This document shows positions 1-63,382 of a DNA stretch of 64,000 nucleotides, one piece after another. The first letter of the stretch is position 1. Every line of letters begins with the position of its first letter. The notes below the pieces were generated by a model that made no database searches, was not told the origin of the DNA, and saw only the letters and a list, made by a program, of their open reading frames with translations. This DNA comes from an uncultured Sediminibacterium sp. (GTDB lineage Bacteria > Bacteroidota > Bacteroidia > Chitinophagales > Chitinophagaceae), in the NCBI GenBank assembly GCA_965650685.1, contig CBFGPM010000001.1:57415-121414 (forward strand), in the 5' to 3' direction. The position numbers and the translations under genes were made by a program.

Positions 1-385
1 AACTGCCTTTGAAAAACTCTGGCGCAACCGGGAAATGGTAGAGAACAGCAAATCGAAATCCTACCTGTTTACGGTGGCCTATAACCAGATGATCGACCAT
101 ATCCGGAAAGTAAAAAGGATACAGTTAAAAGATGAGTTCCAGGAAGACGGCAGATCGGAACAAGCTGGCAGCAATAAGCAAAATGTAAAGAAAATATTGA
201 TGGAGGCATTAAACAGACTGAATGAAACACAAAGAAGTCTGGTTATGCTGAAAGACTATGAAGGTTACAGCTACGAAGAAATTGGTAAGATCATGGATTT
301 GAATGAGAGTCAGGTAAAAGTTTATCTTCACCGTGCGCGACTCACCCTTCGTAACTACCTGGTTAGCCCGGAAAATGTTTTATAA
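1..385 (+). CDS. ECF-type RNA polymerase sigma-70 factor, 5' end cut by window edge
   Basis: The frame is open from nt 2 (TAFEKLWRNREMVENSKSKSYLFTVAYNQMIDHIRK, region-2 like). It ends in a region-4 HTH (YSYEEIGKIMDLNESQVKVYLHRAR). A membrane anti-sigma-like gene follows 17 nt downstream. Confidence 0.8.
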   Translation, partial: TAFEKLWRNREMVENSKSKSYLFTVAYNQMIDHIRKVKRIQLKDEFQEDGRSEQAGSNKQNVKKILMEALNRLNETQRSLVMLKDYEGYSYEEIGKIMDLNESQVKVYLHRARLTLRNYLVSPENVL

Positions 386-402
386 ATTTTATTGAATAAA
401 AA

Positions 403-1548
403 ATGATTCAAATCAACAGACATAACTACGAGGAATTTTTCCTGCTCTATGTAGACAGGGAACTCTCTCCTGCTGCAGTAACGGCTGTTGAACAGTTTAT
501 AAAAGACAATCCCGATCTGGCAGATGAGTTAACAGCGTTACAACAGACAACACTTCCATTAGATGATGCACTGGTATTTGATAAAACCAGTTTATTCAGG
601 AACGCCGAAAATGAAATAAGCTTAGAAAACAGTACAGAGCAGTTTTTGCTTTATGTGGATGATGAACTGACACCTGCCGAACGTCAATCAGTTGAAACAT
701 TTGTATTACAGCACCCTTCTTTGCAAGAAAGTTTTGTACAGTTAAAACAAACTAAGCTTCCGGCTGAACATATTCCTTTTCCGGATAAACAGCTTTTATA
801 TAAAACCGAATCCGATAGAAAGCCAGTTATTTATATGCGCTGGATGAGAATGGTGGCCGCGGCCGCTGTAATTGCTTTCGGATTCTTCCTCTGGGATTTT
901 AGTGGCAGTACTAATATTCAGGCTAATGGTGAAGAAGCTTTGGCCGCAATTCCGAAAAACAACAGTAATACCATTACAACCAATCCATCTGGTGAAGCAT
1001 CTGGTGAAATAATGAAAAGCCAAATAACTTCAACTGAAATAGCCAGTAAGCAAAATAATGATGTTATTGTGTCAGCGGCTACTTTACCAGTTAACAATGG
1101 CATCCAAATTGCACCAAAAGACTTACAGGCAAATAATACAAAACTTGTAGGCACTATTCAACCTGATGTAGACTTGAGAACCAAACCTGAACTGATCATT
1201 GAAAAACAAAATACCATTTCATCAGATGATATAGTGAAACCAAGCATCAACACAAAAAACCTGCAGGAAATGGTTGCCAATGCTGCAATTACAGAACGCG
1301 AAATGATGAAAATTGCTGCACCAGAATTAGAAGAACCCATGGATAAAGAAGTATTAGCACAGCAGGTGGTTTACAGAGAACTCGATACTGAAACAGATAG
1401 TAATAACAAAAGTTTGCTCATTGGTTCAGTTGAAATAAATAAGGATAAACTAAGAGGCTTTTTCCGCAAAGCAGCCAGTATTTTTAAAAGTAAAAAATCG
1501 GAAGAGGCCCAAACTTCAGGCTCAAATCCTACCCGATCGTTAAAATAA
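403..1548 (+). CDS. putative membrane anti-sigma factor with a tandemly duplicated N-terminal module
   Basis: It lies directly after the ECF sigma gene. Two similar ~50-aa modules are present (EEFFLLYVDRELSPAAVTAVEQFIKDNPDLADEL and EQFLLYVDDELTPAERQSVETFVLQHPSLQESF). One TM segment (MVAAAAVIAFGFFLW) is followed by a low-complexity tail. Confidence 0.5.
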   Translation: MIQINRHNYEEFFLLYVDRELSPAAVTAVEQFIKDNPDLADELTALQQTTLPLDDALVFDKTSLFRNAENEISLENSTEQFLLYVDDELTPAERQSVETFVLQHPSLQESFVQLKQTKLPAEHIPFPDKQLLYKTESDRKPVIYMRWMRMVAAAAVIAFGFFLWDFSGSTNIQANGEEALAAIPKNNSNTITTNPSGEASGEIMKSQITSTEIASKQNNDVIVSAATLPVNNGIQIAPKDLQANNTKLVGTIQPDVDLRTKPELIIEKQNTISSDDIVKPSINTKNLQEMVANAAITEREMMKIAAPELEEPMDKEVLAQQVVYRELDTETDSNNKSLLIGSVEINKDKLRGFFRKAASIFKSKKSEEAQTSGSNPTRSLK

Positions 1549-1567
1549 AAGAGTAAAGCACAATCAT

Positions 1568-2452
1568 ATGAAACGTTTAGCAATTGTAACAGCAGCGTTC
1601 CTGTTATCAGCACCGCTGTTTGCCCAAACCGACAGTACCGGTAGTAATGAAGACACCGTGAAAGTGGGCAATTTTATTATCATCAAGAAGAACAAAGACG
1701 GCAACACCAATTCCAGCACAGATAAAAAAGGAATCTGGAAAGATTGGGACAGAAATTTTGATATCCGTATCGAACGCAGAAGCAGAACCAACAGAAATGT
1801 AAGCACCAATTGGTGGATCATGGACCTTGGCTTTACAAATTTCCGTGATCAAACAGACTACAGCTATGCGCAGGCAGGCAGCTATTTCAGAACTTTCCGT
1901 CCGGCAGATGGTGCCGTTAACCAGAATAGTTTTAAACTAAATACGGGCAAATCAACCAACGTGAATATCTGGTTCTTCATGCAAAAAGTAAATGTTTTGA
2001 AGCATGTTGTAAACCTGAAATATGGACTGGGTTTAGAGATGTACAATTTCCGGTACGATTCGCGCCTCAGTTACCGTAAAGATGCCAATCCGTATGTTTA
2101 CAATGACTCCATTTCATTCTCCAAGAATAAATTATACGCTGGTTACTTAACCGTACCCTTCATGATCAATATCAATACTTCACCGAATAACAGAAGAGGA
2201 TTTAGTTTCAGCGCTGGTATGAGTGCCGGTTACCTCATCAGTAGCAGAAACAAACAAAAAAGCAGCGAGCGCGGAAAACAAAAATCACCGGGCGACTTTA
2301 ACCTCGAACCATTTCGTGTAGCAGCTATTGGTGAAGTAGGATTAGGCCCAGTACGCCTCTATGGAAGTTATAGTATCAACAAATTACACAAAGACATCAC
2401 CAGACTTGAGCAGTTCCCTTATGCGGTTGGTATCAGGTTTAGTAGATGGTGA
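1568..2452 (+). CDS. secreted outer-membrane beta-barrel protein (porin-like)
   Basis: It has a signal peptide (MKRLAIVTAAFLLSAPLFAQ), an alternating beta-strand pattern and a C-terminal aromatic residue (FSRW). Confidence 0.5.
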   Translation: MKRLAIVTAAFLLSAPLFAQTDSTGSNEDTVKVGNFIIIKKNKDGNTNSSTDKKGIWKDWDRNFDIRIERRSRTNRNVSTNWWIMDLGFTNFRDQTDYSYAQAGSYFRTFRPADGAVNQNSFKLNTGKSTNVNIWFFMQKVNVLKHVVNLKYGLGLEMYNFRYDSRLSYRKDANPYVYNDSISFSKNKLYAGYLTVPFMININTSPNNRRGFSFSAGMSAGYLISSRNKQKSSERGKQKSPGDFNLEPFRVAAIGEVGLGPVRLYGSYSINKLHKDITRLEQFPYAVGIRFSRW

Positions 2453-2464
2453 GTTTGAATCGAT

Positions 2465-2815
2465 AGCTTCTGGCTGCAAGCTGCAAGCTACAAGCCTTGA
2501 TGGGTGCTTATTATAGACTTTCTGCTATTAATGGAATAATAGAGGGGAGAAAATTTAAAGGCAGTTCCTTAAAGATATATTTGGTTACCGCAAATGCACT
2601 AGCTATTATTAATAGAACACGGATTTTCATGATTTTCAAGATATATCATGATAAATCATGAAAATCATGAAGATCTGTGTTCCATCATACGCGACACCTA
2701 CAGCTTGCGGTTAAAAATTGATAAGGCATAGAATTAGGGGATTTAATCTCTTCCAATTCTATGCCTTATTTCTTTAGAATGATTTCTATACCTCCAACTC
2801 AAGCAGCCAGAAGCT
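2465..2815 (+). repeat. family A mosaic intergenic element, copy 1
   Basis: A 13-bp perfect inverted repeat bounds it: AGCTTCTGGCTGC at 2465-2477 and GCAGCCAGAAGCT at 2803-2815. Left arm is 7-nt words GCTGCAA GCTGCAA GCTACAA. Conserved core lies at 2495-2532 and a 24-bp hairpin at 2615-2638/2659-2682. It is roughly 85 percent identical by eye to copy 4 at 37.6 kb. Confidence 0.85.
2721..2769 (+). terminator. terminator-like hairpin inside copy 1
   Basis: ATAAGGCATAGAATT (2721-2735) pairs perfectly with AATTCTATGCCTTAT (2755-2769). The loop is 19 nt and a T-rich stretch TTCTTT follows. Confidence 0.4.
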
Positions 2816-2949
2816 AGCGGCTAGTAGCTCAAAGCAACATCTCGTTAACATAAAATACATTAACCAAAACTTTTGTCAATTAACCAGGATACAACACTTC
2901 CTGATGCAGCGGAATTCTAGTTTCGGGTTCAAACCAAAAACCTATTTGT

Positions 2950-3492
2950 ATGAAACCCCTTATCTATGCGCCCTGCCTCCTCGCTATTTTAATTGGTGGT
3001 ACATCTTTCAGAAGCACACATCGACTCGTAACATCAAACGCTACTAAAAACACGTATTACATCCTGGTAGTAAAAACAAAGTACCAGATGAAAGTGTACG
3101 ATTCAACCGGAGAATGTCTTGCAACCTACCCTGTTGTTTTTGGCAACAAAGACATGGGAGATAAAATGATGCAGGGCGACCGTCGTACACCCGAGGGAAC
3201 ATTTAAAATCTGTTATAAAAGAAAGCACGAAAAATGGAGCCGATTTTTATTGATCGATTATCCCAATGCGGAAAGTGTGGCAAAATTTAACCAGCGCAAG
3301 GCAGCCGGCATCATTCCCGCCAACGCTCAAATTGGCGGAAGCATTGGCATACATGGAACTTGGCCCAATGAAGATTTCGCAGTAGATGGCTTACAGAATT
3401 GGACAGAAGGTTGCATCAGCACCAAAAACATATACGTAGAAGAAATTTTCGATGTACTGCCTGTCGGTACGAGAATAGAAATCAGAAGGTGA
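2950..3492 (+). CDS. L,D-transpeptidase (YkuD domain) family protein
   Basis: It has an N-terminal hydrophobic signal and the YkuD catalytic motif IGIHGT...TEGCIS. Confidence 0.75.
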   Translation: MKPLIYAPCLLAILIGGTSFRSTHRLVTSNATKNTYYILVVKTKYQMKVYDSTGECLATYPVVFGNKDMGDKMMQGDRRTPEGTFKICYKRKHEKWSRFLLIDYPNAESVAKFNQRKAAGIIPANAQIGGSIGIHGTWPNEDFAVDGLQNWTEGCISTKNIYVEEIFDVLPVGTRIEIRR

Positions 3493-3558
3493 GTCCATAG
3501 ACCATAGACCATAGACCATGGACTATGGACTATGGTCTATGGACTATGGTCTATGGAC
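3493..3558. repeat. 7-nt word hairpin (CCATAGA / TCTATGG family)
   Basis: GTCCATAGACCATAGACCATAGACCATGGACTATGGACTATGGTCTATGGACTATGGTCTATGGAC starts 1 nt after the TGA stop. The left and right halves are imperfect reverse complements. Confidence 0.85.
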
Positions 3559-3643
3559 TATATTCTACCAGCCAACCTTCCCCAGAAAGCAACTAATACA
3601 ATAAGCAATCATTTGCTTAACTTAAGCAACCAAAACAACGCTT

Positions 3644-4777
3644 ATGCATCCAAACAGATTGGCTATTGTAGCCTGCTTATGCTTTTGTTTATTCAATAAT
3701 ATCAAGGCACAGACAGGAAAATTCTCTGATGATTTTTCATCAAACAAAGGATGGAAATTCAGCAATGAACAAGATGCCGATTCTGCAGAAATGATTTTTA
3801 CAGATGGTAGTCTGATCGTAAAAAATAAATACAAGCAAAACAGACGGGTAATTATTGAATACACCCCAACAGGATCATCAGTAGATTTTCGCAATGATGA
3901 TGAATGGGACTGCACCGTAAAACTCAGGCATATTGCTGGTCCGAATAATATGGAATATGGTGTTTGTCTTGGAGGAGTGCAAGGAAAAAAAATGGAAGAT
4001 GGGCTCAATATTGGCGTAAGCGGAAATGGTTATTATAAATTGAGTTCATGGAGCAATAAAAGGATGCAGGAAATAAAACCCTGGACCAGGTACTCCCTTA
4101 TGAAAACCAATGAAGGCGAGGTAAACGAATTGAATATTATTTGCAGGCCTTACAGTAATTTATACCTGCGTATTAACAACGGATGGGCATTCCTTGGTAA
4201 AAAAGGGTACCAGGGACAAAATTCCTTTTTTATTTATGTAGACGGCGGACAAACCATTGCAATTGATGATCTTACGGTATTCAGTTTTAAAAGCCTCTCA
4301 AATAAACTACAAAAGCATAATATTGTAGATTTCATAAACGTTTGCCAGCAGGCAGTAAATAATTTCGCCTTCGCAAAAGGGTTTGAGTCGCAGGGAAACT
4401 TTAAAACCTGGTTGGCCCCTATTACCATCAGTAACCGGGAATACCTGATTCAGTCGAAAAAAGGAGGCATTTTTCCTGAGAACGTAAAAGACACCAGCAG
4501 CAAGAGATATATCTATACCATACCACAGTATTATTCAGATAACCAGTTAAACTTTCTGGAAGATGAAAAAAAGAAGCTGACGGGAATTATTGAAAATGGT
4601 ATGGATAAATTTGAAAAAAAGGAGCTGTTGGCTCAGGGTAAAAAAACCACCTGGTATTTTTATAAGGGTGAAAAACTACCCGATCATACCATTGCATGGA
4701 TTGAAGAATACAAAGAAGGCGAGAAAAACTACCTGGTGGTAAATGTTATAAATGCACCAGATATTGCTTTTTTTTGA
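3644..4777 (+). CDS. secreted hypothetical protein
   Basis: Long ORF with a signal peptide (LAIVACLCFCLFNNIKAQ). I recognised no catalytic motif. Confidence 0.5.
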   Translation: MHPNRLAIVACLCFCLFNNIKAQTGKFSDDFSSNKGWKFSNEQDADSAEMIFTDGSLIVKNKYKQNRRVIIEYTPTGSSVDFRNDDEWDCTVKLRHIAGPNNMEYGVCLGGVQGKKMEDGLNIGVSGNGYYKLSSWSNKRMQEIKPWTRYSLMKTNEGEVNELNIICRPYSNLYLRINNGWAFLGKKGYQGQNSFFIYVDGGQTIAIDDLTVFSFKSLSNKLQKHNIVDFINVCQQAVNNFAFAKGFESQGNFKTWLAPITISNREYLIQSKKGGIFPENVKDTSSKRYIYTIPQYYSDNQLNFLEDEKKKLTGIIENGMDKFEKKELLAQGKKTTWYFYKGEKLPDHTIAWIEEYKEGEKNYLVVNVINAPDIAFF

Positions 4778-4787
4778 GAAAATTAGG

Positions 4788-5738
4788 TTATTTATTTAGA
4801 AAATAACTCATTACAGAGGTCCATTTTCCCCTTTCTCGCTTAAAAAGGCTTTCGTGTCCGCTTTGCAGGTATTTGATCATAACCTTATCATGACTGGCAA
4901 TATTGCCGAAAATGGTGTTGGTTTCATCTTCGGTTACCCGCTTATCTCCTGCCCCCCATTGTAACAACACCGGACAATTTACTTTAAGGGCATAATTAGC
5001 AGGTTTATGGTTAAAGGCCCAGGAGCCGAGTTCTATTCCACCCCAAAAAGTTAAAAGGGTACTTAATGGCTCAGCAGGCAAACCCATGGTTTTCATACGG
5101 CCCTGTACCGCACTATGTAAAGAGCCAAAAGGCATTTCAAGGATAAGCTTATCTGGTTTAATCCCAAATTCATCAATTGCTTTTAAAGCAGTTGCTGCTC
5201 CCATGGAAATACCCCAGATAATGATATTTTTCTCTCCTTTAGATTTTATATAATCGTAGACCGCTTTAACATCTTTCGATTCATAAATACCGATTGAAGT
5301 AGTATTACCCTCACTATTTCCATGCGCCCTGAAATCGGTTAGCATTACCTGGTAACCCATTTCATATAATTTTCTGGCTTCCGCTATGATACCGCTTTTA
5401 CTGCCTGCATGCCCATGAAACATCAGAATGGTGCCTTTTGCTGAATCTTTCGGAGCAAACCAGCTTTCGAGCCGAACACTATCAATTGTTTTAAGTAATA
5501 CAGTATCATGTGGAATGCCTAGTGTGTCAACCACTTTACTTTTAGGATAACGTATACCAAATACGATGGCCTTAAGTTTTTCGCCCCCACTCATCTGTTC
5601 CGGTTTTTTTACCGGCGATGCATCAGTATAAAAATGGGTAAACTTATATGCATGAAATGCGGCAATCAGATTAATGAGTAATAATAATACCAATAAGGTA
5701 TAACCAACTCTTTTGAGCCATTTAGTTAGCATAACCAC
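4788..5738 (-). CDS. alpha/beta hydrolase with N-terminal membrane anchor
   Basis: It has a TM helix (TLLVLLLLINLIAAF), an HGHAGSKS oxyanion region and the nucleophile elbow GISMG. Confidence 0.75.
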   Translation of the reverse strand: MVMLTKWLKRVGYTLLVLLLLINLIAAFHAYKFTHFYTDASPVKKPEQMSGGEKLKAIVFGIRYPKSKVVDTLGIPHDTVLLKTIDSVRLESWFAPKDSAKGTILMFHGHAGSKSGIIAEARKLYEMGYQVMLTDFRAHGNSEGNTTSIGIYESKDVKAVYDYIKSKGEKNIIIWGISMGAATALKAIDEFGIKPDKLILEMPFGSLHSAVQGRMKTMGLPAEPLSTLLTFWGGIELGSWAFNHKPANYALKVNCPVLLQWGAGDKRVTEDETNTIFGNIASHDKVMIKYLQSGHESLFKRERGKWTSVMSYFLNK

Positions 5739-5749
5739 TATTTATATGA

Positions 5750-7021
5750 TCAGTTGATCAGAGCTGATCCGAAATAAGATACTAAGGCCTTGGGAACACG
5801 GATACCTTCAACTGACTGATGATTTTCCAATAAACAAGCCACTATTCTTGGTAAAGCCAGTGAGCTTCCATTAAGGGAATGGGCCAGTTGCATTTTTCCA
5901 CTGGCATCTTTATACCGGCATTTTAAACGGTTAGTCTGATAGTTTTCGAAATTACTTACGCTACTTACTTCTAACCAACGTTCCTGTGCAGCACTAAAAA
6001 CTTCGAAATCATAAGTAATTGCACTTGCAAAACCCATATCTCCACCGCATAATCTTAAAATACGATAAGGCAATTCTAATGTTTGTAATAACTTCTCAAC
6101 ATGTAGTACCATTTCTTCAAGTGCAGCATGACTCTTTTCTGGTTCTACAAGCTGGATTATTTCAACTTTCTCAAATTGATGTAAACGATTCAACCCTCTC
6201 ACATCTTTTCCATAACTACCCGCTTCTCTTCTAAAGCAGGGAGAATAGGCCGTCATTTTCACGGGAAAATCTTCTTCCTTTAAAATAACATCGCGGTAAA
6301 CATTGGTAACCGGAACTTCTGCGGTAGGAATCATATAAAAATCGTCTTCCGGCATATAATACATCTGTCCTTCTTTATCAGGCAATTGACCCGTACCCAT
6401 TGCTGAGGCCGCATTTACCATAAATGGAGGCAGGTATTCTGTATAACCTGCTGCAGTATTATAATCGAGGAAATACTGTATTAAGGCACGTTGCAATTTT
6501 GCACCCTTACCTATATATACGGGGAAGCCACTGCCAGTAATTTTATTACCCAGTTCAAAATCGATCAGGTTATATTTTTTGGTAAGGTCCCAGTGAGGTT
6601 GTGCCCCTTCAAACAAAGCAGGTTTTTCACCACCTTCCCTTACAACGATATTTTCTTCCGGACTGCGTCCTTCAGGAACTTCAGCCGTAGGCAAGTTGGG
6701 TAATTGAAGGAGTGTATCGAGCAGGGTTTGCTCAATAGTAGCCATTTGAGATTTTATGGGTTCAAGGTTGGTTTTCAACCCGGCCACTTCTGCTTTGAGC
6801 GCTTCGGCTGCATCTTTATTTCCCTGGGCCATCAGTTTCCCGATTTCTTTGGAAGCAGCATTAATCTTAGCCTGTGTATTATCGAAATCGAGTTGTAATT
6901 TCTTGCGCTCATCATCTAACCCAATAATGGTATCTACCAATTCAGGTTGCTTAAAATGCTTTACTGCCAGTCTTTTTTTAACTTCTTCCGGGTTCGCCTT
7001 CAGAACACTCACTTGTAACAT
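5750..7021 (-). CDS. serS: seryl-tRNA synthetase
   Basis: 423 aa with an N-terminal coiled-coil arm and a class II core (GSGFPVY, TAEVP, FRREAGS). Confidence 0.95.
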   Translation of the reverse strand: MLQVSVLKANPEEVKKRLAVKHFKQPELVDTIIGLDDERKKLQLDFDNTQAKINAASKEIGKLMAQGNKDAAEALKAEVAGLKTNLEPIKSQMATIEQTLLDTLLQLPNLPTAEVPEGRSPEENIVVREGGEKPALFEGAQPHWDLTKKYNLIDFELGNKITGSGFPVYIGKGAKLQRALIQYFLDYNTAAGYTEYLPPFMVNAASAMGTGQLPDKEGQMYYMPEDDFYMIPTAEVPVTNVYRDVILKEEDFPVKMTAYSPCFRREAGSYGKDVRGLNRLHQFEKVEIIQLVEPEKSHAALEEMVLHVEKLLQTLELPYRILRLCGGDMGFASAITYDFEVFSAAQERWLEVSSVSNFENYQTNRLKCRYKDASGKMQLAHSLNGSSLALPRIVACLLENHQSVEGIRVPKALVSYFGSALIN

Positions 7022-7037
7022 AGAGATCTATTTGCAG

Positions 7038-7045
7038 CAAAGATA
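7038..7045 (-). promoter_or_regulatory. Bacteroidota -7 promoter box TATCTTTG for serS
   Basis: Exact TAnnTTTG match on the minus strand, 16 nt upstream of the serS ATG. Confidence 0.4.
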
Positions 7046-7081
7046 AAGGCTAAAGGCTGATGAAGAAAGGCTTTGAGCCTA

Positions 7082-7089
7082 TACCTTTG
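7082..7089 (+). promoter_or_regulatory. -7 promoter box TACCTTTG, 4 nt before ATG 7094
   Basis: Exact TAnnTTTG match followed by CAGC and then ATG. This predicts a leaderless transcript. Confidence 0.4.
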
Positions 7090-7093
7090 CAGC

Positions 7094-7447
7094 ATGCAAT
7101 ATATAAGTGATGATCTCCAACAACGTTGGTGGGCTTTAGAGGCAGAACTGGTAGATCGTTTTGGTAAAAAACCTGATCTGGAAGCAGTTTTATTTTTAAT
7201 TGGCATGCAGGAAACCGGTTTTATCCGTGAAAAAATCACTAAGGAGCAGAAACAGGATCTTATGCATGTAGCAGTATGCACTGTTTTGGCACAAAGTGGT
7301 TATTATATATTAGAAGGAAACGATGCCGATGGATGGCCCCATTTTAAACAGGTAAAGGAATTACCTCCGATGCCATTACCGGAACAGGAGAATTTTATTA
7401 AGGACCATGTTTTGTTGTATTTCCAGTCTATGGATCATAAACCATAG
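7094..7447 (+). CDS. conserved hypothetical protein
   Basis: ORF trimmed to Met 8 of the track ORF because the promoter box lies inside the 7073 extension. The last codons and the stop lie within the heptamer repeat. Confidence 0.55.
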   Translation: MQYISDDLQQRWWALEAELVDRFGKKPDLEAVLFLIGMQETGFIREKITKEQKQDLMHVAVCTVLAQSGYYILEGNDADGWPHFKQVKELPPMPLPEQENFIKDHVLLYFQSMDHKP

Positions 7448-7530
7448 ACCATAGACCATAGTCCATGGACAATAGACCATTGACAATAGAACATGGAACA
7501 TAGGCAATAAACCATGGACCATGGACTATA
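7441..7530. repeat. degenerate direct 7-nt tandem tract (CCATAGA family)
   Basis: ACCATAGACCATAGACCATAGTCCATGGACAATAGACCATTGACAATAGAACATGGAACATAGGCAATAAACCATGGACCATGGAC. About 12 units are present. They are mostly direct repeats rather than inverted. Confidence 0.8.
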
Positions 7531-7636
7531 TCAGGAATAAATTTTCCATGTTCGGGAATTAATCAATATTTGCATCAGCAAAATCCATGGTTCATACATT
7601 CAGCATCATGGACTCAACACTTTAAAAAAAACGTAT

Positions 7637-21205: not shown

Positions 21206-22237
21206 ATGGCTTATTTTAATTGGAATGACAGCGTAAATTTTCTCAGCAAGCTAACAGCTAAGCGTATTTGGAACAGTATTAAAGTTTACAGCAGTTACCA
21301 GCTCAGTAAATTCAGCAAGAAGCCAATACAATGGGGCTTACCTATTTCTATTTCATTTGAACCTACCACTTCCTGTAATCTAAGATGCCCCGAGTGCCCT
21401 AGTGGACTGCGTGCGTTTAGCAGGCCGACGGGAATGCTACAGAAGGATTTTTTTAAAGAAACCATCGACGATATTCATCAGCACCTGCTATACCTGATCT
21501 TTTATTTTCAGGGAGAACCTTATCTGAACCCAGATTTCCTCGATATGGTGAAATATGCTGCTGATAAAGGCATTTACACAGCCACTTCAACCAATGCACA
21601 TTACCTGACCGATGAAAAAGCCAGGAAAACAGTGGAGAGTGGTTTGGACAGATTAATCATATCCATTGATGGAACTACGCAGGATGTATACCAGCAGTAC
21701 CGGGTAGGTGGTAAACTGGATAAAGTACTGGAAGGTGCGCGAAATATAGTGAAGTGGAAAAAAGAACTGAATAGTAAAACACCTTTTATCTTTTTCCAGT
21801 TTCTGGTAGTAAAACCAAATGAGCATCAAATACAGGCCGTTAAAGAACTGGGTACTGAAATTGGGGTAGACCAGGTTCGTTTTAAAACAGCCCAGGTATA
21901 TGATTATGAAAATGATCCGCATAACCTGATTCCTGTTAACAATAAATACAGCCGTTATAAAAAAGACAAAAACGGAAATATGCAGGTAAAAAGCGGATTA
22001 ACCAACCGATGCTGGAAACTCTGGCATGCTAATGTAATTACATGGGATGGTCTGGTAGTACCCTGCTGCTTCGATAAAGATGCCATGCATCAACTGGGGA
22101 ATCTTAAAACACAAAGTTTTAAGCAAATCTGGTATAACGATAATTACCGGCAATTCAGGAGCGAACTCATGACCAGTAGAAAAAATATAGATATCTGCGC
22201 TAATTGCAGTGAAGGACTTAGTGTGTGGCAGGATTAA
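21206..22237 (+). CDS. radical SAM / SPASM domain protein, substrate unknown
   Basis: It has the CNLRCPECPSG (CxxxCxxC) cluster motif and a C-terminal Cys-rich SPASM-like region (CWKLW...VVPCCFD...CANCSEG). Start moved to the ATG at 21206. Confidence 0.8.
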   Translation: MAYFNWNDSVNFLSKLTAKRIWNSIKVYSSYQLSKFSKKPIQWGLPISISFEPTTSCNLRCPECPSGLRAFSRPTGMLQKDFFKETIDDIHQHLLYLIFYFQGEPYLNPDFLDMVKYAADKGIYTATSTNAHYLTDEKARKTVESGLDRLIISIDGTTQDVYQQYRVGGKLDKVLEGARNIVKWKKELNSKTPFIFFQFLVVKPNEHQIQAVKELGTEIGVDQVRFKTAQVYDYENDPHNLIPVNNKYSRYKKDKNGNMQVKSGLTNRCWKLWHANVITWDGLVVPCCFDKDAMHQLGNLKTQSFKQIWYNDNYRQFRSELMTSRKNIDICANCSEGLSVWQD

Positions 22238-22240
22238 TAA

Positions 22241-22332
22241 GTGAATGGTCAATGGTGAATTGTCAATGGTATTTTCCTAACTATTTAGGTTCATTAAGCA
22301 ATGCAATTCACAATTCACCATTGACCATTCAC
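22241..22332. repeat. 7-nt word hairpin (GTGAATG / GTCAATG family)
   Basis: GTGAATGGTCAATGGTGAATTGT (22241-22263) is the perfect reverse complement of ACAATTCACCATTGACCATTCAC (22310-22332). The stem is 23 bp and the loop 46 nt. Confidence 0.9.
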
Positions 22333-24378: not shown

Positions 24379-24387
24379 AAAGGAGGG

Positions 24388-24680
24388 ATTTTTGATCTTT
24401 GATTTTTTGATTTTGGGGGGTTATGCTGGTAATTAAGCCGCGTGATACGAACAGGACTTTCTTCGGGAGTTCTTCGGGAAAACAGGGGGTTTCTTCGGGG
24501 TTTCTTCGGACATCCTTCGGTAATCCTTCGAGAACTCTCGAAGCGGCTTCGGGAAATACCGAAGGATTACCGAAGAAAACACGACCATGATTCGAAGAAA
24601 TACCTGTCTTGATCTTTGATCTTTGAATTTTGACTTTTGACTTTTGACTTTTGATTTTTGATTTTGGGAGTATGCTAGTG
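24388..24680. repeat. composite repeat: TGATCTT/TGACTTT heptamer tracts flanking a CTTCGG-word palindromic core
   Basis: The flanks are direct repeats ending in TTGATTTTGGGGGGTTATGCTGGT (24407-24430) and TTGATTTTGGGAGTATGCTAGT (24657-24678). The core contains GGTAATCCTTCG (24519-24530) paired with CGAAGGATTACC (24560-24571). Confidence 0.85.
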
Positions 24681-25186: not shown

Positions 25187-25274
25187 GGGTCTGTTTCGGT
25201 TAATAACAGCTAACGTACCAAAAGGTTTAGCTCCATGTAGGCAAGCGCAAATAAAATAGCATTGACTGTCTGTT

Positions 25275-25356
25275 GGCTGCAAGCTACTAGCCTCTAGCTG
25301 CTAGCCTAGATTGGTGCTATTTTTAGGCTTGCAGCTTGCGGCTTGTAGCTTGAAGC
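25275..25356 (+). repeat. minimal family A unit (word arms plus degenerate core)
   Basis: GGCTGCAAGCTACTAGCCTCTAGCTGCTAGCC TAGATTGGTGCTATTTTTA GGCTTGCAGCTTGCGGCTTGTAGCTTGAAGCC. The arms are inverted complements, for example GCTGCAAGC with GCTTGCAGC. Confidence 0.8.
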
Positions 25357-25435
25357 CAGTTTTACCCGGCCTGCAATGGCAATATGGACCATATACCATA
25401 AGCTATAAGCCCTATCTCCATTCTTCTCTTTAAAC

Positions 25436-28648: not shown

Positions 28649-30064
28649 ATGAAACGAATCAACCATTTAACTTCATATACATTATTACTGGCCTTGTATA
28701 CCACATTGCTTGGTTTGGCCAGTTCATGTGCCAATATTGTTCCTCCGGGTGGTGGTCCGCGCGACAGTTTGCCGCCAAGATTGGTTACGGCAATGCCAAA
28801 GGATTCTGCAGTTAATGTAAAAACAAAGAATATTACCCTCAGTTTCGATGAGTTCGTCAAACTGGAGAACCCTTTTGAAAACCTGATTTATTCTCCGGTG
28901 GTGAAAACACCTCCTTTGGCAGATTACAAACTCAGGAATGTAACCATTCGCTTTCGCGACTCACTCGAAGCAAATACAACCTACGCTATCGACTTTGGCA
29001 ATTCCATCCAGGATGTAAATGAAGGTAACATCGCTAAAAATTTCCGGTATGTTTTTTCTACCGGACCAACTATCGATTATAACAGTTATACTGGCAAAGT
29101 AATTGTGGCCCAAACAGGTAAGGTAGATAGTACATTATGGGTAGTGTTGCACCGCAATCTTGCAGATTCAGCCATTGAAAAACTACAACCGCGTTTTTAT
29201 ACCCGACTCAATGGTAAGGGAGAATTTAACTTTCAAAATTTACCTGCGGGAAATTTTGCAGCCTATGTGGTAAATAAAAACAGTTATAATAAAGTCTTCG
29301 ACAGCACTGAACTTTTTGCTTTCAGGAATGACCCTGTGCTGGTTAGCACTAATACGCCTTCAGATACGTTTTATGCGTTCATCCAATCTCCCAAGCTTAC
29401 AAAATCATCGGGTGATGGTGCTGCATTGCCAGCCAATATAAGGGATGACAGAAGATTAAGGTATCTGCCCGATTTGGATAATGGGCAGCAGGATTTAATG
29501 GCTGGCTTACCATTGTATTTCAACAGAAAACTCTTTTCAGTTGACACTACTAAAATTCAATTAACGGATAGCAATTTTGCAGACATAAAAGGATACACGG
29601 TTCAGTTAGACTCAACCCGTAAAAAACTCATTATTGATTATCCCTGGAAAGAAAATAATGTATACAAGTTGGTAATTCAGAAAGAAGCTTTTGCTGATAC
29701 CAATTCGGTAATGTTAACCAAAGCAGATACACTAAGAATTGCAACAAGAAAAGAAACCGAGTATGGAACTATCCGATTCAGGTTTACAAACCTGAATCCA
29801 TCGCAAAATCCGGTGTTGCAAATTGTAAGAAATGATGAACTTATTGCGTCCTATCCGATTAACACCAACGATTTTACTATTAAAAGATTCAAACCCGGGA
29901 CTTATGAATTAAGGATTTTGTATGATGCCAATAAAAACGGCAAATGGGATACTGGCCAGTTTAGTTCCGGAAAAAAACTTCAACCCGAAAAGGTAATAAA
30001 CATCCCCCGCCCCCTTAGTATCCGCGCTAATTGGGATAATGAGGTTACGATTGGTTTGCTGTAA
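28649..30064 (+). CDS. Ig-like (Big_5/SbsA-type) domain lipoprotein
   Basis: It has a lipobox (LGLASSC) followed by PPGGGPRDSLPPRLV, typical of this Bacteroidota lipoprotein family. Confidence 0.55.
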   Translation: MKRINHLTSYTLLLALYTTLLGLASSCANIVPPGGGPRDSLPPRLVTAMPKDSAVNVKTKNITLSFDEFVKLENPFENLIYSPVVKTPPLADYKLRNVTIRFRDSLEANTTYAIDFGNSIQDVNEGNIAKNFRYVFSTGPTIDYNSYTGKVIVAQTGKVDSTLWVVLHRNLADSAIEKLQPRFYTRLNGKGEFNFQNLPAGNFAAYVVNKNSYNKVFDSTELFAFRNDPVLVSTNTPSDTFYAFIQSPKLTKSSGDGAALPANIRDDRRLRYLPDLDNGQQDLMAGLPLYFNRKLFSVDTTKIQLTDSNFADIKGYTVQLDSTRKKLIIDYPWKENNVYKLVIQKEAFADTNSVMLTKADTLRIATRKETEYGTIRFRFTNLNPSQNPVLQIVRNDELIASYPINTNDFTIKRFKPGTYELRILYDANKNGKWDTGQFSSGKKLQPEKVINIPRPLSIRANWDNEVTIGLL

Positions 30065-30082
30065 ATGAATTATCTACTACTA

Positions 30083-30420
30083 ATAGAACACAGATTTTCA
30101 TGATCTATCATGATAATCCGTGTTCTATCATATCCAGAACTGTCCGGGGAAAATAGGCTGCGAGCTTCTAGCCCCTAGCTGCTAGCCTTGATTGGTGCCT
30201 GTTTTAGGTTTTCTGCTTTTATTTGAATAAATGACAGGGCTTGCGAATTTGTTTTGTAAAAATCCTACTTAAAATAAAAATTCAACTACCATATTTACAC
30301 TTTGGGTGGTTAAATGAATAGCAAAAAAAAGCTAGCAGCTAGAAGCCAGTAGCTAGAAGCTGTTCCCCCCCGACAGCAATGACTAATAACTTGCAGCTTG
30401 CGGCCTGCAGCTTGCAGCCT
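30083..30420 (+). repeat. family A mosaic element, copy 2 (permuted module order)
   Basis: A short hairpin TAGAACACAGATT...AATCCGTGTTCTA lies at 30083-30127, then CTGTCCGGGGAAAAT and GCTGCGA/GCTTCTA word arms. The core CCTTGATTGGTGCCTGTTTTAGGTTTTCTGCTTTTATTTGAAT is at 30186-30228. Opposing arms GCTAGCAGCTAGAAGCCAGTAGCTAGAAGC lie at 30330-30360, followed by further GCTTGCA words up to 30420. Confidence 0.8.
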
Positions 30421-33325: not shown

Positions 33326-33549
33326 GTTCTAGCTTCAAGCTTCGGGCCGTAAGCTACAAGCTTAGATGGGTGCTTATTATAGACTTTCCGCTATTAATTG
33401 AACACGGATCTTCATGATTTTCAGGATTTATCATGATAGATCCTGAAAATCATGAAAATCTGTGTTCTATCGTACTCGACACTTATAGTTCGCGGTCAAA
33501 TTTCCCCAGACTGCAATAGCTTGAAGCTTGAAGCCTGAGGCTTGAAGCT
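33326..33549 (+). repeat. family A mosaic element, copy 3 (short form without the ~85-bp insert)
   Basis: The arms are AGCTTCAAGCTT... and ...AAGCTTGAAGCT. The core is at 33361-33398, the 28-bp hairpin at 33400-33427/33440-33467 and the tail ...AAATTTCCCC at 33498-33507. Confidence 0.85.
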
Positions 33550-33550
33550 A

Positions 33551-33582
33551 AAAACCCCGGTATGCTGTTGCCGGGGTTTTTT
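33551..33582 (+). terminator. canonical intrinsic terminator
   Basis: AAAACCCCGG (33551-33560) pairs with CCGGGGTTTT (33571-33580). The loop is 10 nt and a T-run follows. Confidence 0.7.
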
Positions 33583-33761: not shown

Positions 33762-34778
33762 ATGAGTATTAGAAAAGCACTCGAAAAGAGAATTTTAGTG
33801 ATCGACGGAGCCATGGGTACCATGATTCAGCGTCATAAACTTACAGAAGCAGATTATCGTGGAGAACGATTCAAAGACTGGCATTGCGATGTAAAAGGTA
33901 ATAATGACCTTTTATGCATCACACAACCAGACATCATCAAAGGTATTCACAAGCAATACCTGTCAGCAGGGGCAGACATCATTGAAACCAATACATTCAG
34001 CAGCACCACCATTGCCATGGCCGACTACGACATGCAATCACTGGCTTATGAATTAAATGTTGCTGCAGCAAAATGCGCCAAAGATGCAGTGAAAGAATTC
34101 ATGGAAGAAAATCCCGTTACAACTGAAAAATATGTAGCAGGAGCCATCGGTCCATTGAACAAAACATTGAGTCTTTCACCAGACGTAAATAACCCCGGAT
34201 ACAGAGCAGTTACGTTTGATGAAGTGGTAACAGCTTACAAAGAACAAATCAAAGGATTGGTAGATGGTGGGGTAGATATTTTATTAATAGAAACCATCTT
34301 TGATACCCTCAATGCCAAAGGAGCCATTTTCGCCGCTAAACAATTCTTCCGCGAAACAGGTATCCCTGAACTTCCGATCATGATCAGCGGAACCATTACA
34401 GATGCTTCCGGCAGAACACTTAGCGGACAAACACTGGAAGCTTTTTATACCTCTGTAATGCATGCCGAACCTTTAAGTGTTGGTTTAAATTGTGCATTAG
34501 GTGCTTCTGAAATGCGTGCACATATTGAAGAGTTGAGTCAGATAGCCGCCTGTTATACTTCTGCCTACCCCAATGCAGGTTTACCAAATGCTATGGGAGA
34601 ATATGATGAAGCACCACACGAAACAGCCCATTTTATTGAAGAATGGGCCAAACAAGGTTTTGTAAACATTGTTGGAGGATGTTGCGGTACAACACCCGAC
34701 CACATTAAACATATTGCAGACAACGTTAAAAAAATTACTCCAAGAGCAGTTCCGGAAGTTGAAACTTCATTGGCTTAA
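33762..34778 (+). CDS. homocysteine S-methyltransferase domain protein (N-terminal module of a split methionine synthase)
   Basis: 338 aa with Hcy-binding barrel Zn ligands (GLNCALG and GGCCGTTP). The rest of MetH follows 13 nt downstream. Confidence 0.85.
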
Positions 34779-34790: not shown

Positions 34791-37508
34791 ATGAGCGAAA
34801 CCATTACTATCAAGCCTTACCTAAGGTTATCAGGACTAGAACCACTTGTTGTTCGCCCCGAAACCAATTTTGTAAATGTTGGCGAACGTACCAATGTTAC
34901 AGGATCTAAAAAATTTGCCCGACTAATCAGGGAAAATAAATACGAAGAAGCCCTCTCCGTTGCCAGACAACAGGTTGAAAACGGTGCTCAGGTGCTGGAT
35001 GTAAATATGGACGATGCCCTGCTCGACGGGGTTAAAGCCATGACTACCTTCCTCAACCTGCTTCAGAGTGAACCAGATATTGCCCGTATACCTATTATGA
35101 TCGACAGTTCTAAGTTCGAGATCATTGAGGCAGGACTAAAATGCGTGCAGGGTAAATGTATCGTGAACTCTATCTCCATGAAAGAAGGAGAGGAAAAATT
35201 TATTGAACAGGCATTTATCTGTAAAGCATTTGGTGCAGCCGTTATTGTAATGGCGTTTGATGAAGTTGGACAGGCAGATACCAAAGACAGAAAAATTGAA
35301 ATTTGTCACCGTGCCTATAAAATTCTTACTGAGAAAGTAGGTTTTCCGCCTCAAGACATCATTTTCGATCCAAACATATTTGCCGTAGCAACCGGTATTG
35401 AAGAGCATAATAACTACGCAGTTGATTTTATTGAAGCCACCCGTGAAATTAAAAGACTGATGCCCCTTACCAAAGTAAGCGGCGGTGTGTCTAACGTATC
35501 TTTTTCATTCAGGGGTAACGATCATGTGAGAGAAGCTATTCACTCCGTATTCTTATTACATGCCATTAAAGCCGGTATGGATATGGGTATTGTGAATGCC
35601 GGTCAACTGGTGGTATATGATGAAATAGAACCAACACTTCGCCAGCTTTGTGAAGATGTGCTGCTGAATAAAAACAACGACAACAACGAAGCCACAGAAA
35701 AACTCATCGCTTTTGCAGAAACCGTTAAAGCAAAAGGCAAGGTTGAAGTAAAAGATGAAGCATGGCGCAATGAGCCTGTTGAAAAAAGACTGGCACACTC
35801 ACTCATAAATGGGATTACCGATTATATTGAAGCAGATACAGAAGAAGCACGCCAGAAATATCCTAAACCATTAGATGTAATTGAAGGGCCGTTAATGGAT
35901 GGAATGAATATTGTCGGTGACCTTTTTGGCGCAGGTAAGATGTTTCTTCCACAGGTGGTAAAGAGTGCACGTGTTATGAAGAAAAGTGTAGCCGTTCTTA
36001 CCCCATACATTGAAGCAGAAAAAGAAGAAAAAAGACTGGCACACCTCGCTGCAGGCACTACCAATACAGAAACTGCCGGTGCTGCCAAAATTTTATTGGC
36101 TACCGTTAAAGGTGATGTACATGATATTGGTAAAAACATTGTAGGAGTTGTATTAGGCTGTAATGGCTACGATATTGTAGACCTCGGTGTAATGGTTCCT
36201 GCCGACAAAATTCTGGAAGCAGCACAAAAAGAAAATGCCGATATCATTGGCTTAAGTGGTCTTATTACGCCTTCGCTCGATGAAATGGTACATATTGCCA
36301 AGGAAATGAAGCGCCGGAACATGACACAGCCTTTACTGATTGGCGGTGCTACTACTTCTCGCATGCATACTGCGGTTAAAATTGCACCGGAATATGGGCA
36401 TGGTGTGGTGCATGTACTGGATGCTTCGAGAAGTGTTACGGTAGCAGGATCATTATTAAACAAAGAACAAAAACAACCCTTTCTTCAATCCATTACAGAT
36501 GAGTATGTGAAACTGAAAGAAAGTTTTGATAATAAAAAAACAGTGAAGCAATACCTTTCTTACCAGGATGCATTGCAACACAAGGCAAATATCGACTGGA
36601 ACAGCTTCACCCCTGTTACACCTCAGTTTACCGGTACCAAAGTATTTGAAGACCTTGACCTAAATGAACTCAGACCTTATATAGACTGGAAACCCTTCTT
36701 TATTGCCTGGGAAATGCATGGCAACTTCCCTGAAATATTAAGTGATACTGTTGTAGGTAAAGAAGCCACCAAATTATACAATGATGCCAATGCCCTGCTG
36801 GATAAAATAATCAGTGAAAAATGGCTCACTGCAAAAGGAACCATTGGGTTCTGGGAAGCAGCAAGTGCTGATGATGATATAACTGTTACCCATCAGCAAG
36901 GAAATACAACATTATCTTTCTTGCGCCAGCAGATTAAAAAAGCGCCGGGACAACCGAATTTATCATTGGCTGATTTTATTGCCCCACAAACAAGTGGCAA
37001 AAAAGATTTTATCGGAGCTTTTGCTGTAACGATTCATGGCATTGATACCCATATCAAAAACTTTGAAGCCAATCACGACGACTATAACAAAATTATGTTA
37101 CAGGCATTAGCCGATCGTTTAGCAGAAGCTTTTGCAGAATACCTTCACCTTAGAACGAGGAAGGAATTTTGGGGTTACGATACCAATGAAAGTCTTACTA
37201 ATGATGAACTGATCAAAGAAAAATATGTAGGTATACGTCCGGCACCAGGTTATCCTGCCTGTCCGGATCATACAGAAAAGTATAAACTCTTTGCACTCCT
37301 GCAAGCCACTGAAACCATTGGTATTGAACTAACGGAAAGTCTGGCCATGTATCCTGCCTCTTCCGTTTGTGGCTGGTATTTCTCGCACCCGCAAAGCCAG
37401 TATTACGGTGTAGGTAAGATTCAACGCGATCAGTTGGAAGATTATGCCAGAAGAAAAAATATGCCACTCGAAGAAGCGGAGAGATGGCTGAGTCCGGTGT
37501 TAGAATAA
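34791..37508 (+). CDS. metH: methionine synthase, pterin-binding + cobalamin-binding + AdoMet-activation modules
   Basis: 905 aa with the B12 motif [18 protein letters not shown] and a C-terminal reactivation domain ([12 protein letters not shown]). Confidence 0.9.
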
Positions 37509-37550
37509 AAACAGAAGAATATCGAATGTCGAACTTGGAAGTCATCGCTG

Positions 37551-37824
37551 TCCGGGGAAATTGGCTTCAAGCTGCATGCCGCAAGCTACAAGCCTTGATG
37601 GGTGCTTATATTAGACTTCCTGCTTTTAATGAAATTAAAGAGGAGGAGAAAATTTAAAGTCAGTTGCTCAAAAAAATATTTGGTTGCCCTAAATGCACTA
37701 TCTGCTATTAATAGAACACGGATCTTCATGATTTTCAAGATCTATCATGATAAATCCTGAAAATCATGAAGATCTGTGTTCCATCATACGCGACACCAAC
37801 AGTTCGCAGTTAAATTTCCCCGGA
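37551..37824 (+). repeat. family A mosaic element, copy 4, bounded by 12-bp perfect terminal inverted repeats
   Basis: TCCGGGGAAATT (37551-37562) pairs with AATTTCCCCGGA (37813-37824). The core is at 37593-37630 and the hairpin at 37714-37737/37758-37781. The whole element is nested between outer arms at 37530-37547 and 37866-37883. Confidence 0.9.
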
Positions 37825-37912
37825 TGGCAATGGCTAGAAGTTCGCAACCAATTTTCCCCGTAAAACGATAACTTCGAAGTTCGAAGTTGGACATTTCTCT
37901 GTTGGAAATTTT

Positions 37913-43372: not shown

Positions 43373-43481
43373 GAACAGAGAAATAAGGAACAGAGAAATA
43401 AGAAATAAGGAATAAGAAATGAGAAAGTAAAGCGCCTGTCTTCTCACTTTGGACATTTCTCTGTTCCTTATTTCTCTGTTC
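43373..43481. repeat. 27-bp perfect hairpin of GAACAGA/GAAATAA words in a divergent promoter region
   Basis: GAACAGAGAAATAAGGAACAGAGAAAT (43373-43399) is the perfect reverse complement of ATTTCTCTGTTCCTTATTTCTCTGTTC (43455-43481). Confidence 0.9.
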
Positions 43482-54088: not shown

Positions 54089-54538
54089 ATGTGTTTACGC
54101 AAGTCGTTATTGTGTTTATTTTTCTTTGCTGTTGTTTTTGCTGCCTGCAGCATTTCCAAGCAATCTGCGCATGTAATTGTAAATAATGAAAGCAGGGAAC
54201 ATGTGCCAATGAAGTTGGTAATCAGTGATCAGGAGAATGGCAAGACAAAAGAAACGGTGGATTATCTGTTAAAGCCCGGATTACAGGAGGTACACATTCG
54301 TAAATTTCCAAAAGGGGCCTATGACATATCTCTAAACCTGAAAAACGGCGTTATTCATAAAAATTACCCACTTGCTTTAGATACAGACCGATGGATCATG
54401 GTTACCTATATGCAAGATGATTCCCTCAGGCTTCAAAAGAAATACGGGTATATCGACACTTCTTCTTTGAAAAAAATAAATGGTGAATATGCCGGACTCA
54501 ATCTGTATGTTGAAAACAGAAGGCCTCCAAATTTATAG
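54089..54538 (+). CDS. hypothetical lipoprotein
   Basis: It has a signal/lipobox (FFFAVVFAAC). No recognised domain. Confidence 0.45.
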   Translation: MCLRKSLLCLFFFAVVFAACSISKQSAHVIVNNESREHVPMKLVISDQENGKTKETVDYLLKPGLQEVHIRKFPKGAYDISLNLKNGVIHKNYPLALDTDRWIMVTYMQDDSLRLQKKYGYIDTSSLKKINGEYAGLNLYVENRRPPNL

Positions 54539-54564
54539 ACCATAGACCATGGTCTATGGTCTAT
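54535..54564. repeat. perfect 30-nt palindrome (CCATAGA family) containing the stop codon
   Basis: ATAGACCATAGACCATGGTCTATGGTCTAT is its own reverse complement. The TAG stop lies at 54536-54538. Confidence 0.9.
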
Positions 54565-54705
54565 GGACTATGGACCATGCGCTTCCTCACAAAGTATCTG
54601 TTTCTCTCACCTCCCTCAGGTAACTGAAATTTTACGGGCTTCAATCAAAATAATTAAATAAATTCATGGCTCATTGTTTATCCAACCCATAACCAACCGA
54701 TTGCT

Positions 54706-56184: not shown

Positions 56185-56292
56185 GAACAGAGAAATAAGG
56201 AATAAGAAATAGAAAATAAGAAAGGAATGAGGAAGTGTAAATACAACTACACTTTCTCATTCCTTATTTTTTATTCCTTATTCCTCTGTTTC
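56185..56292. repeat. imperfect long hairpin of GAACAGA/GAAATAA words between convergent genes
   Basis: GAACAGAGAAATAAGGAATAAGAAATAGAAAATAAGAAAGGAATGAGGAAGTGTA ... TACACTTTCTCATTCCTTATTTTTTATTCCTTATTCCTCTGTTTC. It uses the same word family as 43373-43481. Confidence 0.85.
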
Positions 56293-57187: not shown

Positions 57188-57234
57188 AAGACTCAAAAGT
57201 CAAATACATATTTTGAATTTGACTTTTGAGTCTT
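57188..57234. repeat. 18-bp perfect hairpin (TGACTTT word family)
   Basis: AAGACTCAAAAGTCAAAT (57188-57205) is the perfect reverse complement of ATTTGACTTTTGAGTCTT (57217-57234). Confidence 0.9.
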
Positions 57235-57242
57235 TACTTACC

Positions 57243-57812: not shown

Positions 57813-57828
57813 GGTGATGTTTTTTTTC

Positions 57829-57897
57829 GTGAATCGTGAATAGTGAATGGTGAATGCTGGCCTCTTTATTGACCATTCACCATTGACAATTGACTAC
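57829..57897. repeat. imperfect hairpin (GTGAATG word family) between the GMC gene and its small subunit gene
   Basis: GTGAATCGTGAATAGTGAATGGTGAATG ... CATTCACCATTGACAATTGAC. The best stem is AATGGTGAATG (57846-57856) with CATTCACCATT (57874-57884). Confidence 0.75.
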
Positions 57898-59680: not shown

Positions 59681-59690
59681 GACTATTCTA

Positions 59691-63358: not shown

Positions 63359-63382
63359 CACTCACTATCAAACCTCTCTACT

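Follow-up and report, generated by a model that had tools for sequence, protein, structure and literature searches.

A probable MITE family nested in intergenic hairpins of a Sediminibacterium lineage

Bacterial MITEs such as Nezha, Chunjie, Correia/NEMIS, ERIC and RUP are small, non-coding, A+T-rich elements that occur in multiple copies between genes, carry terminal inverted repeats, have very stable predicted folds and occupy orthologous sites that are filled in some genomes and empty in others (PMC3184786, PMC10969869). None of the examples reviewed in these two papers comes from Bacteroidota. In the pneumococcal BOX/RUP/SPRITE clusters, copies lie nested in each other (PMC3184786, PMC10969869). 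The REP and REPIN sequences with RAYT form a second group of dispersed extragenic palindromes, sometimes clustered, with long hairpins and without target duplication (PMC3116915). Pre-existing extragenic hairpins also serve as integration sites for IS1397, IS621 and IS1594, which are autonomous and encode their own enzyme (PMC3184786).

Here, we describe family A, an intergenic repeat with five copies in a 64,000-nt stretch of DNA from an uncultured Sediminibacterium sp. (hereafter the window). It shares the MITE features listed above, and the nesting of its copies resembles the pneumococcal clusters. Unlike those MITEs, it shows no target-site duplication at copy 5 and has no parent insertion sequence in the examined sequence; it is further set apart by inserting at the tips of hairpins and by its internal make-up, which includes arrays of 7-nt units and a 68-nt palindrome composed of 9-nt units. 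In common with REPs and REPINs it has dispersed, sometimes clustered palindromes, long hairpins and no visible target duplication, and its minimal form, copy 2, is a single long hairpin. In contrast to REPs of 20–40 nt, however, the palindrome measures 68 nt and the whole element ~290 nt, no RAYT was found in the examined sequence, and the conserved head is GAAC, not GTAG or CGTC. Moreover, conservation of the palindrome ends extends across orders, while a REP is usually specific to a species or genus. The cyanobacterial heptamer repeats (STRR) and small dispersed repeats (SDR), reportedly described by Elhai et al. in 2008 (cited in PMC3116915), are similar in having intergenic tandem 7-nt units in hairpins and very small mobile repeats nested in repeats or hairpins, but they belong to another phylum and have other sequences, and the element described here is ten times the length of an SDR and has terminal inverted repeats. 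Family A shares integration into pre-existing extragenic hairpins with the three insertion sequences named above, yet, unlike them, it is non-coding. It is apparently a new, uncatalogued MITE family of a familiar selfish-DNA kind, nested and targeting hairpin apices; searching the literature for the repeat strings, we found no paper.

Anatomy of the family A element

The window has a G+C content of 40%, and its positions 2–7468 are 89–91% identical to contig L033 of an uncultured Sediminibacterium MAG. A scan of the genome collection for the hairpin arm returned matches almost only from Chitinophagaceae. A cyanobacterial origin (Nostoc or Anabaena), suggested by the heptamer repeats, was rejected in view of the MAG identity, the G+C content and the split metH. 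The initial annotation had placed five copies in the window, and all five were recovered by a repeat search (as families D2 and D4–D7); a family profile (293-nt HMM) derived from 15 long copies matched the window at these five loci only (Table 1). The same profile gave 95 raw matches (HSPs counted on both strands, with several from each copy) in 232 kb of Sediminibacterium MAG sequence and none in 1.06 Mb of syntenic metH loci from relatives. Within the window, we counted 8 occurrences of the hairpin arm GAACACRGATYTTCATGAT (0.09 expected) and 9 of the 10-mer GAACRCRGAT (0.28 expected), 8 of these 9 lying inside the hairpins. A role of GAACRCRGAT as an uptake sequence was rejected, the 10-mer being almost confined to palindromes. 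Gapped identity reached 87.4% over 167 nt between copies 1 and 4, close to the ~85% judged earlier by eye, 88.4% over 250 nt between copies 1 and 5, and 87.2% over 179 nt between copies 4 and 5. The spacing of 35 kb once assigned to the first of these pairs is that of copy 5; copy 4 lies 31 kb from copy 1.

The repeat had been described as four modules. These are present, but comparison with ~30 further MAG copies resolves them into one ~290-nt element with terminal inverted repeats, which the module description had missed. The canonical order is terminal repeat, four 7-nt units (GCTNCAA), core (CCTTGATKGGTGCTTRTTTTAGGCTTTCTGCTATTAAT; its coordinates had been given correctly), an optional segment of ~80 nt flanked by the direct repeat TCTGCTATTAAT, the 68-nt palindrome, a tail (CATCATACGCGACACCTACAGCTCGCGGTC) and the inverted terminal repeat. 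The terminal inverted repeats span ~23 bp and start with 5'-CA (CAnTRnTGTCCGGGGAAATTTG); the right one, AAATTTCCCCGGACAGCAATGG, lies at the end of the tail, its partner CATCGCTGTCCGGGGAAATT precedes the left arm, and the two pair in the predicted fold. In many copies a complementary heptamer arm follows the element. The 37 distinct ends that we aligned share GTCCGGGGAAAT, preceded by a conserved CA-T-R-Y-T, and conservation reaches ~10 nt outside GTCC before it collapses. Complete elements with both ends present in inverted orientation occur in the window (37550–37825) and in L034 (82–359), L044 (2629–2915) and L069 (497–782). The hairpin, earlier put at 24–28 bp, is a 30-bp stem within the 68-nt palindrome, or a 40-nt short form in copy 3, and copy 5 extends beyond its former limits of 37551–37824.

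Elements range from 118 to 330 nt and contain no ORF of at least 80 aa. Pairwise identity among the 15 long copies is 63–88% (mean 75%), and the family is therefore diverse, with no single recent burst. Core and palindrome are better conserved in these copies than the remainder of the element, which could reflect a function and not transposase binding alone. The common long form would have arisen when an element landed in the right arm of a second one and the resulting composite spread; the degenerate internal repeat GGGGAGAAAATTTAAA in the optional segment fits such an element-in-element origin.

Individual copies have features of their own. At 2722–2776, copy 1 contains an unrelated small hairpin (AAGGCATAGAATT...AATTCTATGCCTT, then ATTTCTTT) that is absent from the other copies and has the appearance of either an intrinsic terminator or an additional small insertion. 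In copy 3, the pre-hairpin module (30050–30064) reaches into ORF 28649–30064, covering its stop codon and the five codons before it. The ORF product ends in TIGLL in the window and in TIALQ at the same position in relatives, which may point to a small fusion of gene and element or be a similarity due to chance. In L050, another Chitinophagaceae MAG, a ~275-nt element at 3640–4020 is flanked by GGAATTA/GGGACTA heptamers and combines related ends (TTGTATCCGGGAAAAAT / ATTTAACCGGACAA) with an unrelated interior, which suggests a wider superfamily with common GTCCGG ends.

Table 1 Features of the five family A copies and adjoining hairpin arms, in window coordinates.
Feature	Position	Strand	Remarks
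Copy 1, left arm, GCTNCAA-type 7-nt units	2466–2494	+	left terminal repeat missing
Copy 1, core	2495–2532	+	loop of outer heptamer hairpin plus degenerate first right-arm unit
Copy 1, optional segment, ~80 nt	2533–2614	+	direct repeat TCTGCTATTAAT / AGCTATTATTAAT; internal degenerate repeat GGGGAGAAAATTTAAA
Copy 1, palindrome, 68 nt, 30-bp stem	2615–2682	+	9-nt units TTTCATGAT
Copy 1, tail (CATCATACGCGACACC...GGTTAAA)	2683–2715	+	right terminal repeat truncated
Copy 1, right arm, 7-nt units	2803–2835	+	complement of left arm
Copy 2, minimal palindromic form (repeat, arm, loop, arm, repeat)	25262–25379	+	in divergent promoter region
Copy 2, left arm	25275–25304		preceded by degenerate terminal repeat
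Copy 2, loop/core	25305–25327		
Copy 2, right arm	to 25357		
Copy 2, degenerate right terminal repeat	25358–25379		AGTTTTACCCGGCCTGCAATGG
Copy 3, part a	30050–30140	+	pre-hairpin module, 40-nt short palindrome 30086–30125, tail stub
Copy 3, part b	30141–30385	+	left terminal repeat TGTCCGGGGAAAATAG, left arm, core 30186–30228, variable interior
Copy 3, part b, right side	within 30141–30385	+	right arm 30331–30363; degenerate right terminal repeat ...CCCCCCCGACAGCAATGAC
Older heptamer arm (CTTGCAG type) adjoining copy 3	30390–30419	+	
Copy 4	33326–33549	+	left arm, core 33361–33398, palindrome 33400–33467 (68 nt)
Copy 4, tail and right terminal repeat	33468–33520	+	
Copy 4, right arm	33520–33549	+	
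Host hairpin left arm, GAATATC-type 7-nt units	37511–37542	+	between convergent metH and LOG-family genes
Copy 5, complete nested element	37543–37870	+	
Copy 5, outer left terminal repeat	37543–37563		
Copy 5, left arm	37564–37592		
Copy 5, core	37593–37630		
Copy 5, optional segment	37631–37713		
Copy 5, palindrome	37714–37781		
Copy 5, tail and inner right terminal repeat	37782–37832		
Copy 5, right-arm remnant	37833–37849		
Copy 5, outer (second inverted) right terminal repeat	37850–37870		
Host hairpin right arm	37871–37903	+	still pairs with 37511–37542 around the insertion

Filled and empty sites at hairpin tips

The history of individual sites was read from a syntenic set of 80 loci, obtained from a metagenome scan with MetH-N, in which the closest relatives share 91–94% MetH-N amino acid identity. 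Gene order (helicase, Ig-like protein, recR ... metH, LOG) is conserved in these loci, and metH is split in 80 of 80 into adjacent genes, which in the window are 33762–34778 (homocysteine-binding part) and 34791–37508 (905-aa remainder). Copies 4 and 5 are missing from the orthologous spacers of L098–L105. The metH–LOG spacer measures 76–108 nt in the closest relatives versus 405 nt in the window, the DUF5777–metH spacer ~240 nt versus 453 nt, and the excess corresponds exactly to copies 5 and 4. Copy 4, which has neither optional segment nor left terminal repeat, is an insertion that separates the DUF5777 stop codon from the conserved terminator of this gene (33550–33581), which all relatives keep.

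The copy 5 site is empty in L101, where 7-nt units form a perfect 28-bp stem closed by a 7-nt loop, and in the window copy 5 is placed exactly at the apex of this hairpin. There, the whole 404-nt spacer folds into one hairpin inside another, and the old stem closes round the paired ends of the insert (z = −8.1; copy 5 alone, folded as DNA, z = −8.6). Since relatives lack copies 4 and 5, and copy 5 is nested in a hairpin that is intact elsewhere, family A is mobile DNA. The recent spread proposed in the initial annotation is borne out by these empty spacers and by the terminal inverted repeats. Small, non-coding and bounded by terminal inverted repeats, the element is dispersed in multiple copies and occurs at sites that are filled in the window and empty in relatives, as is characteristic of MITEs. 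Family A is thus probably a non-autonomous DNA transposon, a MITE of ~290 nt at full length residing in one Sediminibacterium lineage (Chitinophagaceae). Counting against this reading are the lack of a visible target duplication at copy 5 and of an autonomous element with the same ends in the examined sequence (both below), the stronger conservation of core and palindrome, the missing left terminal repeats of copies 1 and 4, and an orientation bias of 17:3, which needs selection or strand-specific insertion as an extra assumption.

No target-site duplication was visible at copy 5, the sole fully resolvable filled/empty pair, and the bases flanking the ends are not conserved beyond about −10. 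Duplication of a TA target, as in the IS630/Tc1 type, was considered and rejected: although a subset of ends reads TA-CTGTCC, conservation goes on beyond it as CCA/TGG, and the flanking bases are not TA. Where the window has copy 3, relatives show a simple hairpin made of the same type of heptamer and lacking terminal repeat, core and palindrome; where it has copy 2, they carry hairpins of another heptamer, GGTACTA. Other copies adjoin arms of four heptamer types (GCTNCAA, CCATGGA, GTGAATA and GAAGTTC). The elements occupy the tips of intergenic hairpins made of 7-nt units or adjoin their arms directly. We propose that a transposase or recombinase encoded elsewhere would recognise the terminal repeats and integrate the element at hairpin tips, where insertion would be tolerated because the paired ends of the element rebuild the host hairpin.

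Further hairpin families in the window are built from the tandem 7-nt units CCATAGA/TCTATGG, GTGAATG/CATTCAC and GACTTTT, next to a 15-nt GAACAGAGAAATAAG type. Their positions fall into four groups: (1) 3481–3576, 7428–7544, 54512–54607 and 59654–59686; (2) 22237–22332, 57825–57894 and 63290–63365; (3) 24387–24674 and 57208–57239; and (4) 43373–43430 and 56185–56227. In relatives, hairpins at the same spacers are made of different heptamers. These heptamer hairpins strongly resemble cyanobacterial STRR, though the genome is that of a member of the Bacteroidota.

Such hairpins raise the question of whether the copies could be ordinary intergenic terminator hairpins that never moved, having grown in situ as 7- and 9-nt units slipped and having become alike through convergence. 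Heptamer hairpins do fill many spacers here and in relatives, with different unit sequences at the same site, and the number of units differs between near-identical strains (L095 versus copy 4). However, ~250 nt of complex, non-periodic sequence (core, optional segment, tail and terminal repeats) is 87–88% identical at unlinked sites and missing from the orthologous spacers of relatives, which convergence cannot produce. In-place slippage is hardly credible as an account of the family: it is refuted for the full element and could apply at most to the simple heptamer hairpins into which the element inserts.

Copies continue to change after insertion: the interior inverts between the arms, the palindrome loop flips to its mirror image, 7- and 9-nt units are gained or lost, and short direct repeats give rise to deletions between them. 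At the locus orthologous to copy 1 in the MAG contig L033, the whole interior is inverted between the same two arms. The palindrome loop GATYTATCATGATARATC is found as mirror isomers (T..G 12, C..A 9; Watson–Crick 1), the product expected from recombination between the arms of a DNA palindrome. Palindrome lengths fall into classes of 40, 49, 59, 68 and 78 nt, that is, steps of 9–10 nt. A separate comparison, of the metagenome contig L095 (1–372) with window positions 30000–30368, showed 99.4% identity downstream of 30368 and a different repeat arrangement upstream of recR; this may be strain polymorphism or an assembly chimera, and because of the latter possibility it was left out as evidence.

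Orientation bias and the case for a structured RNA

The initial annotation had also seen weak evidence for a function as RNA in 3' UTRs and had noted that in four of five copies the core runs in the direction of the upstream gene; the orientation bias holds up. When the core end facing the stop codon of a co-directional upstream gene was scored as sense, 17 copies were sense and 3 antisense to the upstream gene (two-sided binomial p ~0.003; heuristic ORFs), further copies being undeterminable; this makes co-transcription in 3' UTRs likely. In the window, four of the five copies lie 13–35 nt past a stop codon, and copy 4, lying upstream of a native terminator, must be co-transcribed. As most copies are sense and lie between stop codon and terminator, they are probably co-transcribed too. 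Together with the very stable folds (z = −8 to −9), this is what one would see if the element functioned as a structured RNA (a small RNA, or a part of the 3' UTR that acts in stability or termination) whose sequence and hairpin are conserved by RNA-level selection. However, one would expect the orientation bias just as much of a MITE, given strand-specific insertion or selection that depends on orientation.

Other observations speak against an RNA. In copy 1, both mismatched hairpin positions (2621:2676 and 2625:2672) are G:T on the + strand, as had been reported in favour of a + strand RNA, but the argument does not extend to other copies: among 25 distinct 68-nt hairpins, each oriented by its flanks, 33 G:T-type and 29 A:C-type mismatches show no strand asymmetry. 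The palindrome loop is found in both mirror orientations. Covariation, a check proposed for the hairpin, was 0.083 versus 0.076 in shuffles across 32 hairpins, with the observed value reached by 69 of 500 shuffles; the percentage paired (92.5% of cells, same hairpins) was reached by 60 of 500. Five copies, copy 2 included, lie in divergent promoter regions, the interior is inverted at the L033 locus, and the same genes in close relatives lack the element. Searching Rfam with the whole window gave 0 matches at gathering thresholds, and copy 5 drew only sub-threshold matches to generic miRNA hairpins. Apart from the orientation bias, the RNA-function reading is mostly not supported; we regard it as improbable, and no RNA-level function is needed to explain the copies.

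The palindrome beyond the lineage and the putative mobilising enzyme

Outside the clade of the window, profile matches cover only HMM positions ~165–250, which correspond to the palindrome. Because ~70 chance single-arm matches are expected in a genome collection of this size, only two-armed matches were counted. A stand-alone palindrome flanked by ATR and YAT is present in Pinibacter, Ferruginibacter and other Sediminibacterium, as well as in 'Sphingobacteriales' and Chitinophagaceae MAGs, two Ignavibacteriota MAGs and one Flavobacterium MAG; L007 has three palindromes in tandem. Its ends (head), ATRGAACRCRGAT, are conserved from Chitinophagales to Ignavibacteriota. The palindrome is kept, with interior indels, at orthologous positions in genomes that are 83–93% identical (L065/L086, L051/L071 and L002/L054), and it is thus older and more stable than the MITE now carrying it. 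In two of these comparisons (L065 2344–2490 versus L086 4149–4241; L051 3938–4006 versus L071 4259–4307), outer stems are conserved and interiors differ by 20–54 nt. The 68-nt palindrome may have been captured from an older stand-alone Chitinophagales palindromic repeat, or may share common ancestry with it.

The family had been reported with no transposase in sight, and we likewise found no transposase family among 50 of the 51 window ORFs of at least 150 aa. There was no autonomous element with the same ends in ~1.9 Mb of examined sequence, and inverted pairs of ends 0.6–5 kb apart were seen there only in L003. On this MAG contig, positions 3902–7357 form a perfect mirror image round a 68-nt palindrome at 5596–5663, with the same 447-aa thioredoxin-like ORF on either side. 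A 3.4-kb autonomous element between inverted ends was considered for L003 and rejected, as the arrangement is an assembly fold-back artefact, caused by the repeat and centred on the palindrome. A blastn search of the plasmid collection with copy 5 gave no match, and viral contigs yielded 5 matches to the hairpin arm and 19 to the terminal repeat, all of them single chance matches without element context.

Mobilisation might proceed by a route other than a classical cut-and-paste DDE transposase, in which the element moves as single-stranded DNA via a tyrosine HUH enzyme (REPIN/RAYT- or IS200/IS605-like) or through an IS110-type recombinase, the palindromes and not the terminal repeats being what is recognised. 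This would agree with the absent target duplication at copy 5, the insertion at hairpin apices, the strand and orientation bias and the REPIN-like minimal form of copy 2, one long hairpin. The 68-nt palindrome also occurs alone, sometimes clustered in tandem as in L007, in many Chitinophagales and some Ignavibacteriota with conserved ATRGAACRCRGAT ends, and IS1397, IS621 and IS1594 target REP-like palindromes (PMC3184786). On the other side, a tblastn search of the examined loci for an IS200-like TnpA gave no match below E = 1, a weak test with an approximate query and a small sequence sample. The element has clear 23-bp terminal inverted repeats, whereas IS200/IS605 derivatives and IS110 elements typically lack them. 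Furthermore, the GTAG and CGTC heads of the two large REP superfamilies (PMC3733652) are absent, the head here being ATRGAACRCRGAT. On balance we consider this route unlikely, and the reading as a MITE with terminal repeats remains the preferred one.

The MITE might also be the visible part of a wider Bacteroidota system of heptamer hairpins, 9-nt-unit palindromes with ATRGAACRCRGAT ends and tip-integrating elements, served by an undescribed enzyme that recognises DNA structure; this is a speculative extension to which we give a low probability. The elements of such a system may integrate at tips without target duplication and in a preferred orientation, and its enzyme may be REPIN/RAYT-like, IS110-like or something new. 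If true, it would have a counterpart in heterocystous cyanobacteria, whose heptamer and SDR repeats are unexplained.

Family A would add a MITE family, apparently uncatalogued, to Chitinophagaceae, a group with almost no described small mobile elements. It also explains intergenic breaks in assemblies of these freshwater bacteria, where contigs stop at the repeat and, in the case of one MAG contig, an artefactual fold-back has formed at the palindrome; metagenome contigs with an identical RecR are short and end at repeats. Copy 5 offers a clean case of a hairpin-forming element inserted at the tip of a terminator-like hairpin with the stem preserved. We know of no explanation for the origin of the heptamer-hairpin repeats of cyanobacteria. 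Should apex targeting and orientation bias prove general across the genome, family A could offer a way to find the enzyme that is responsible for such repeats.
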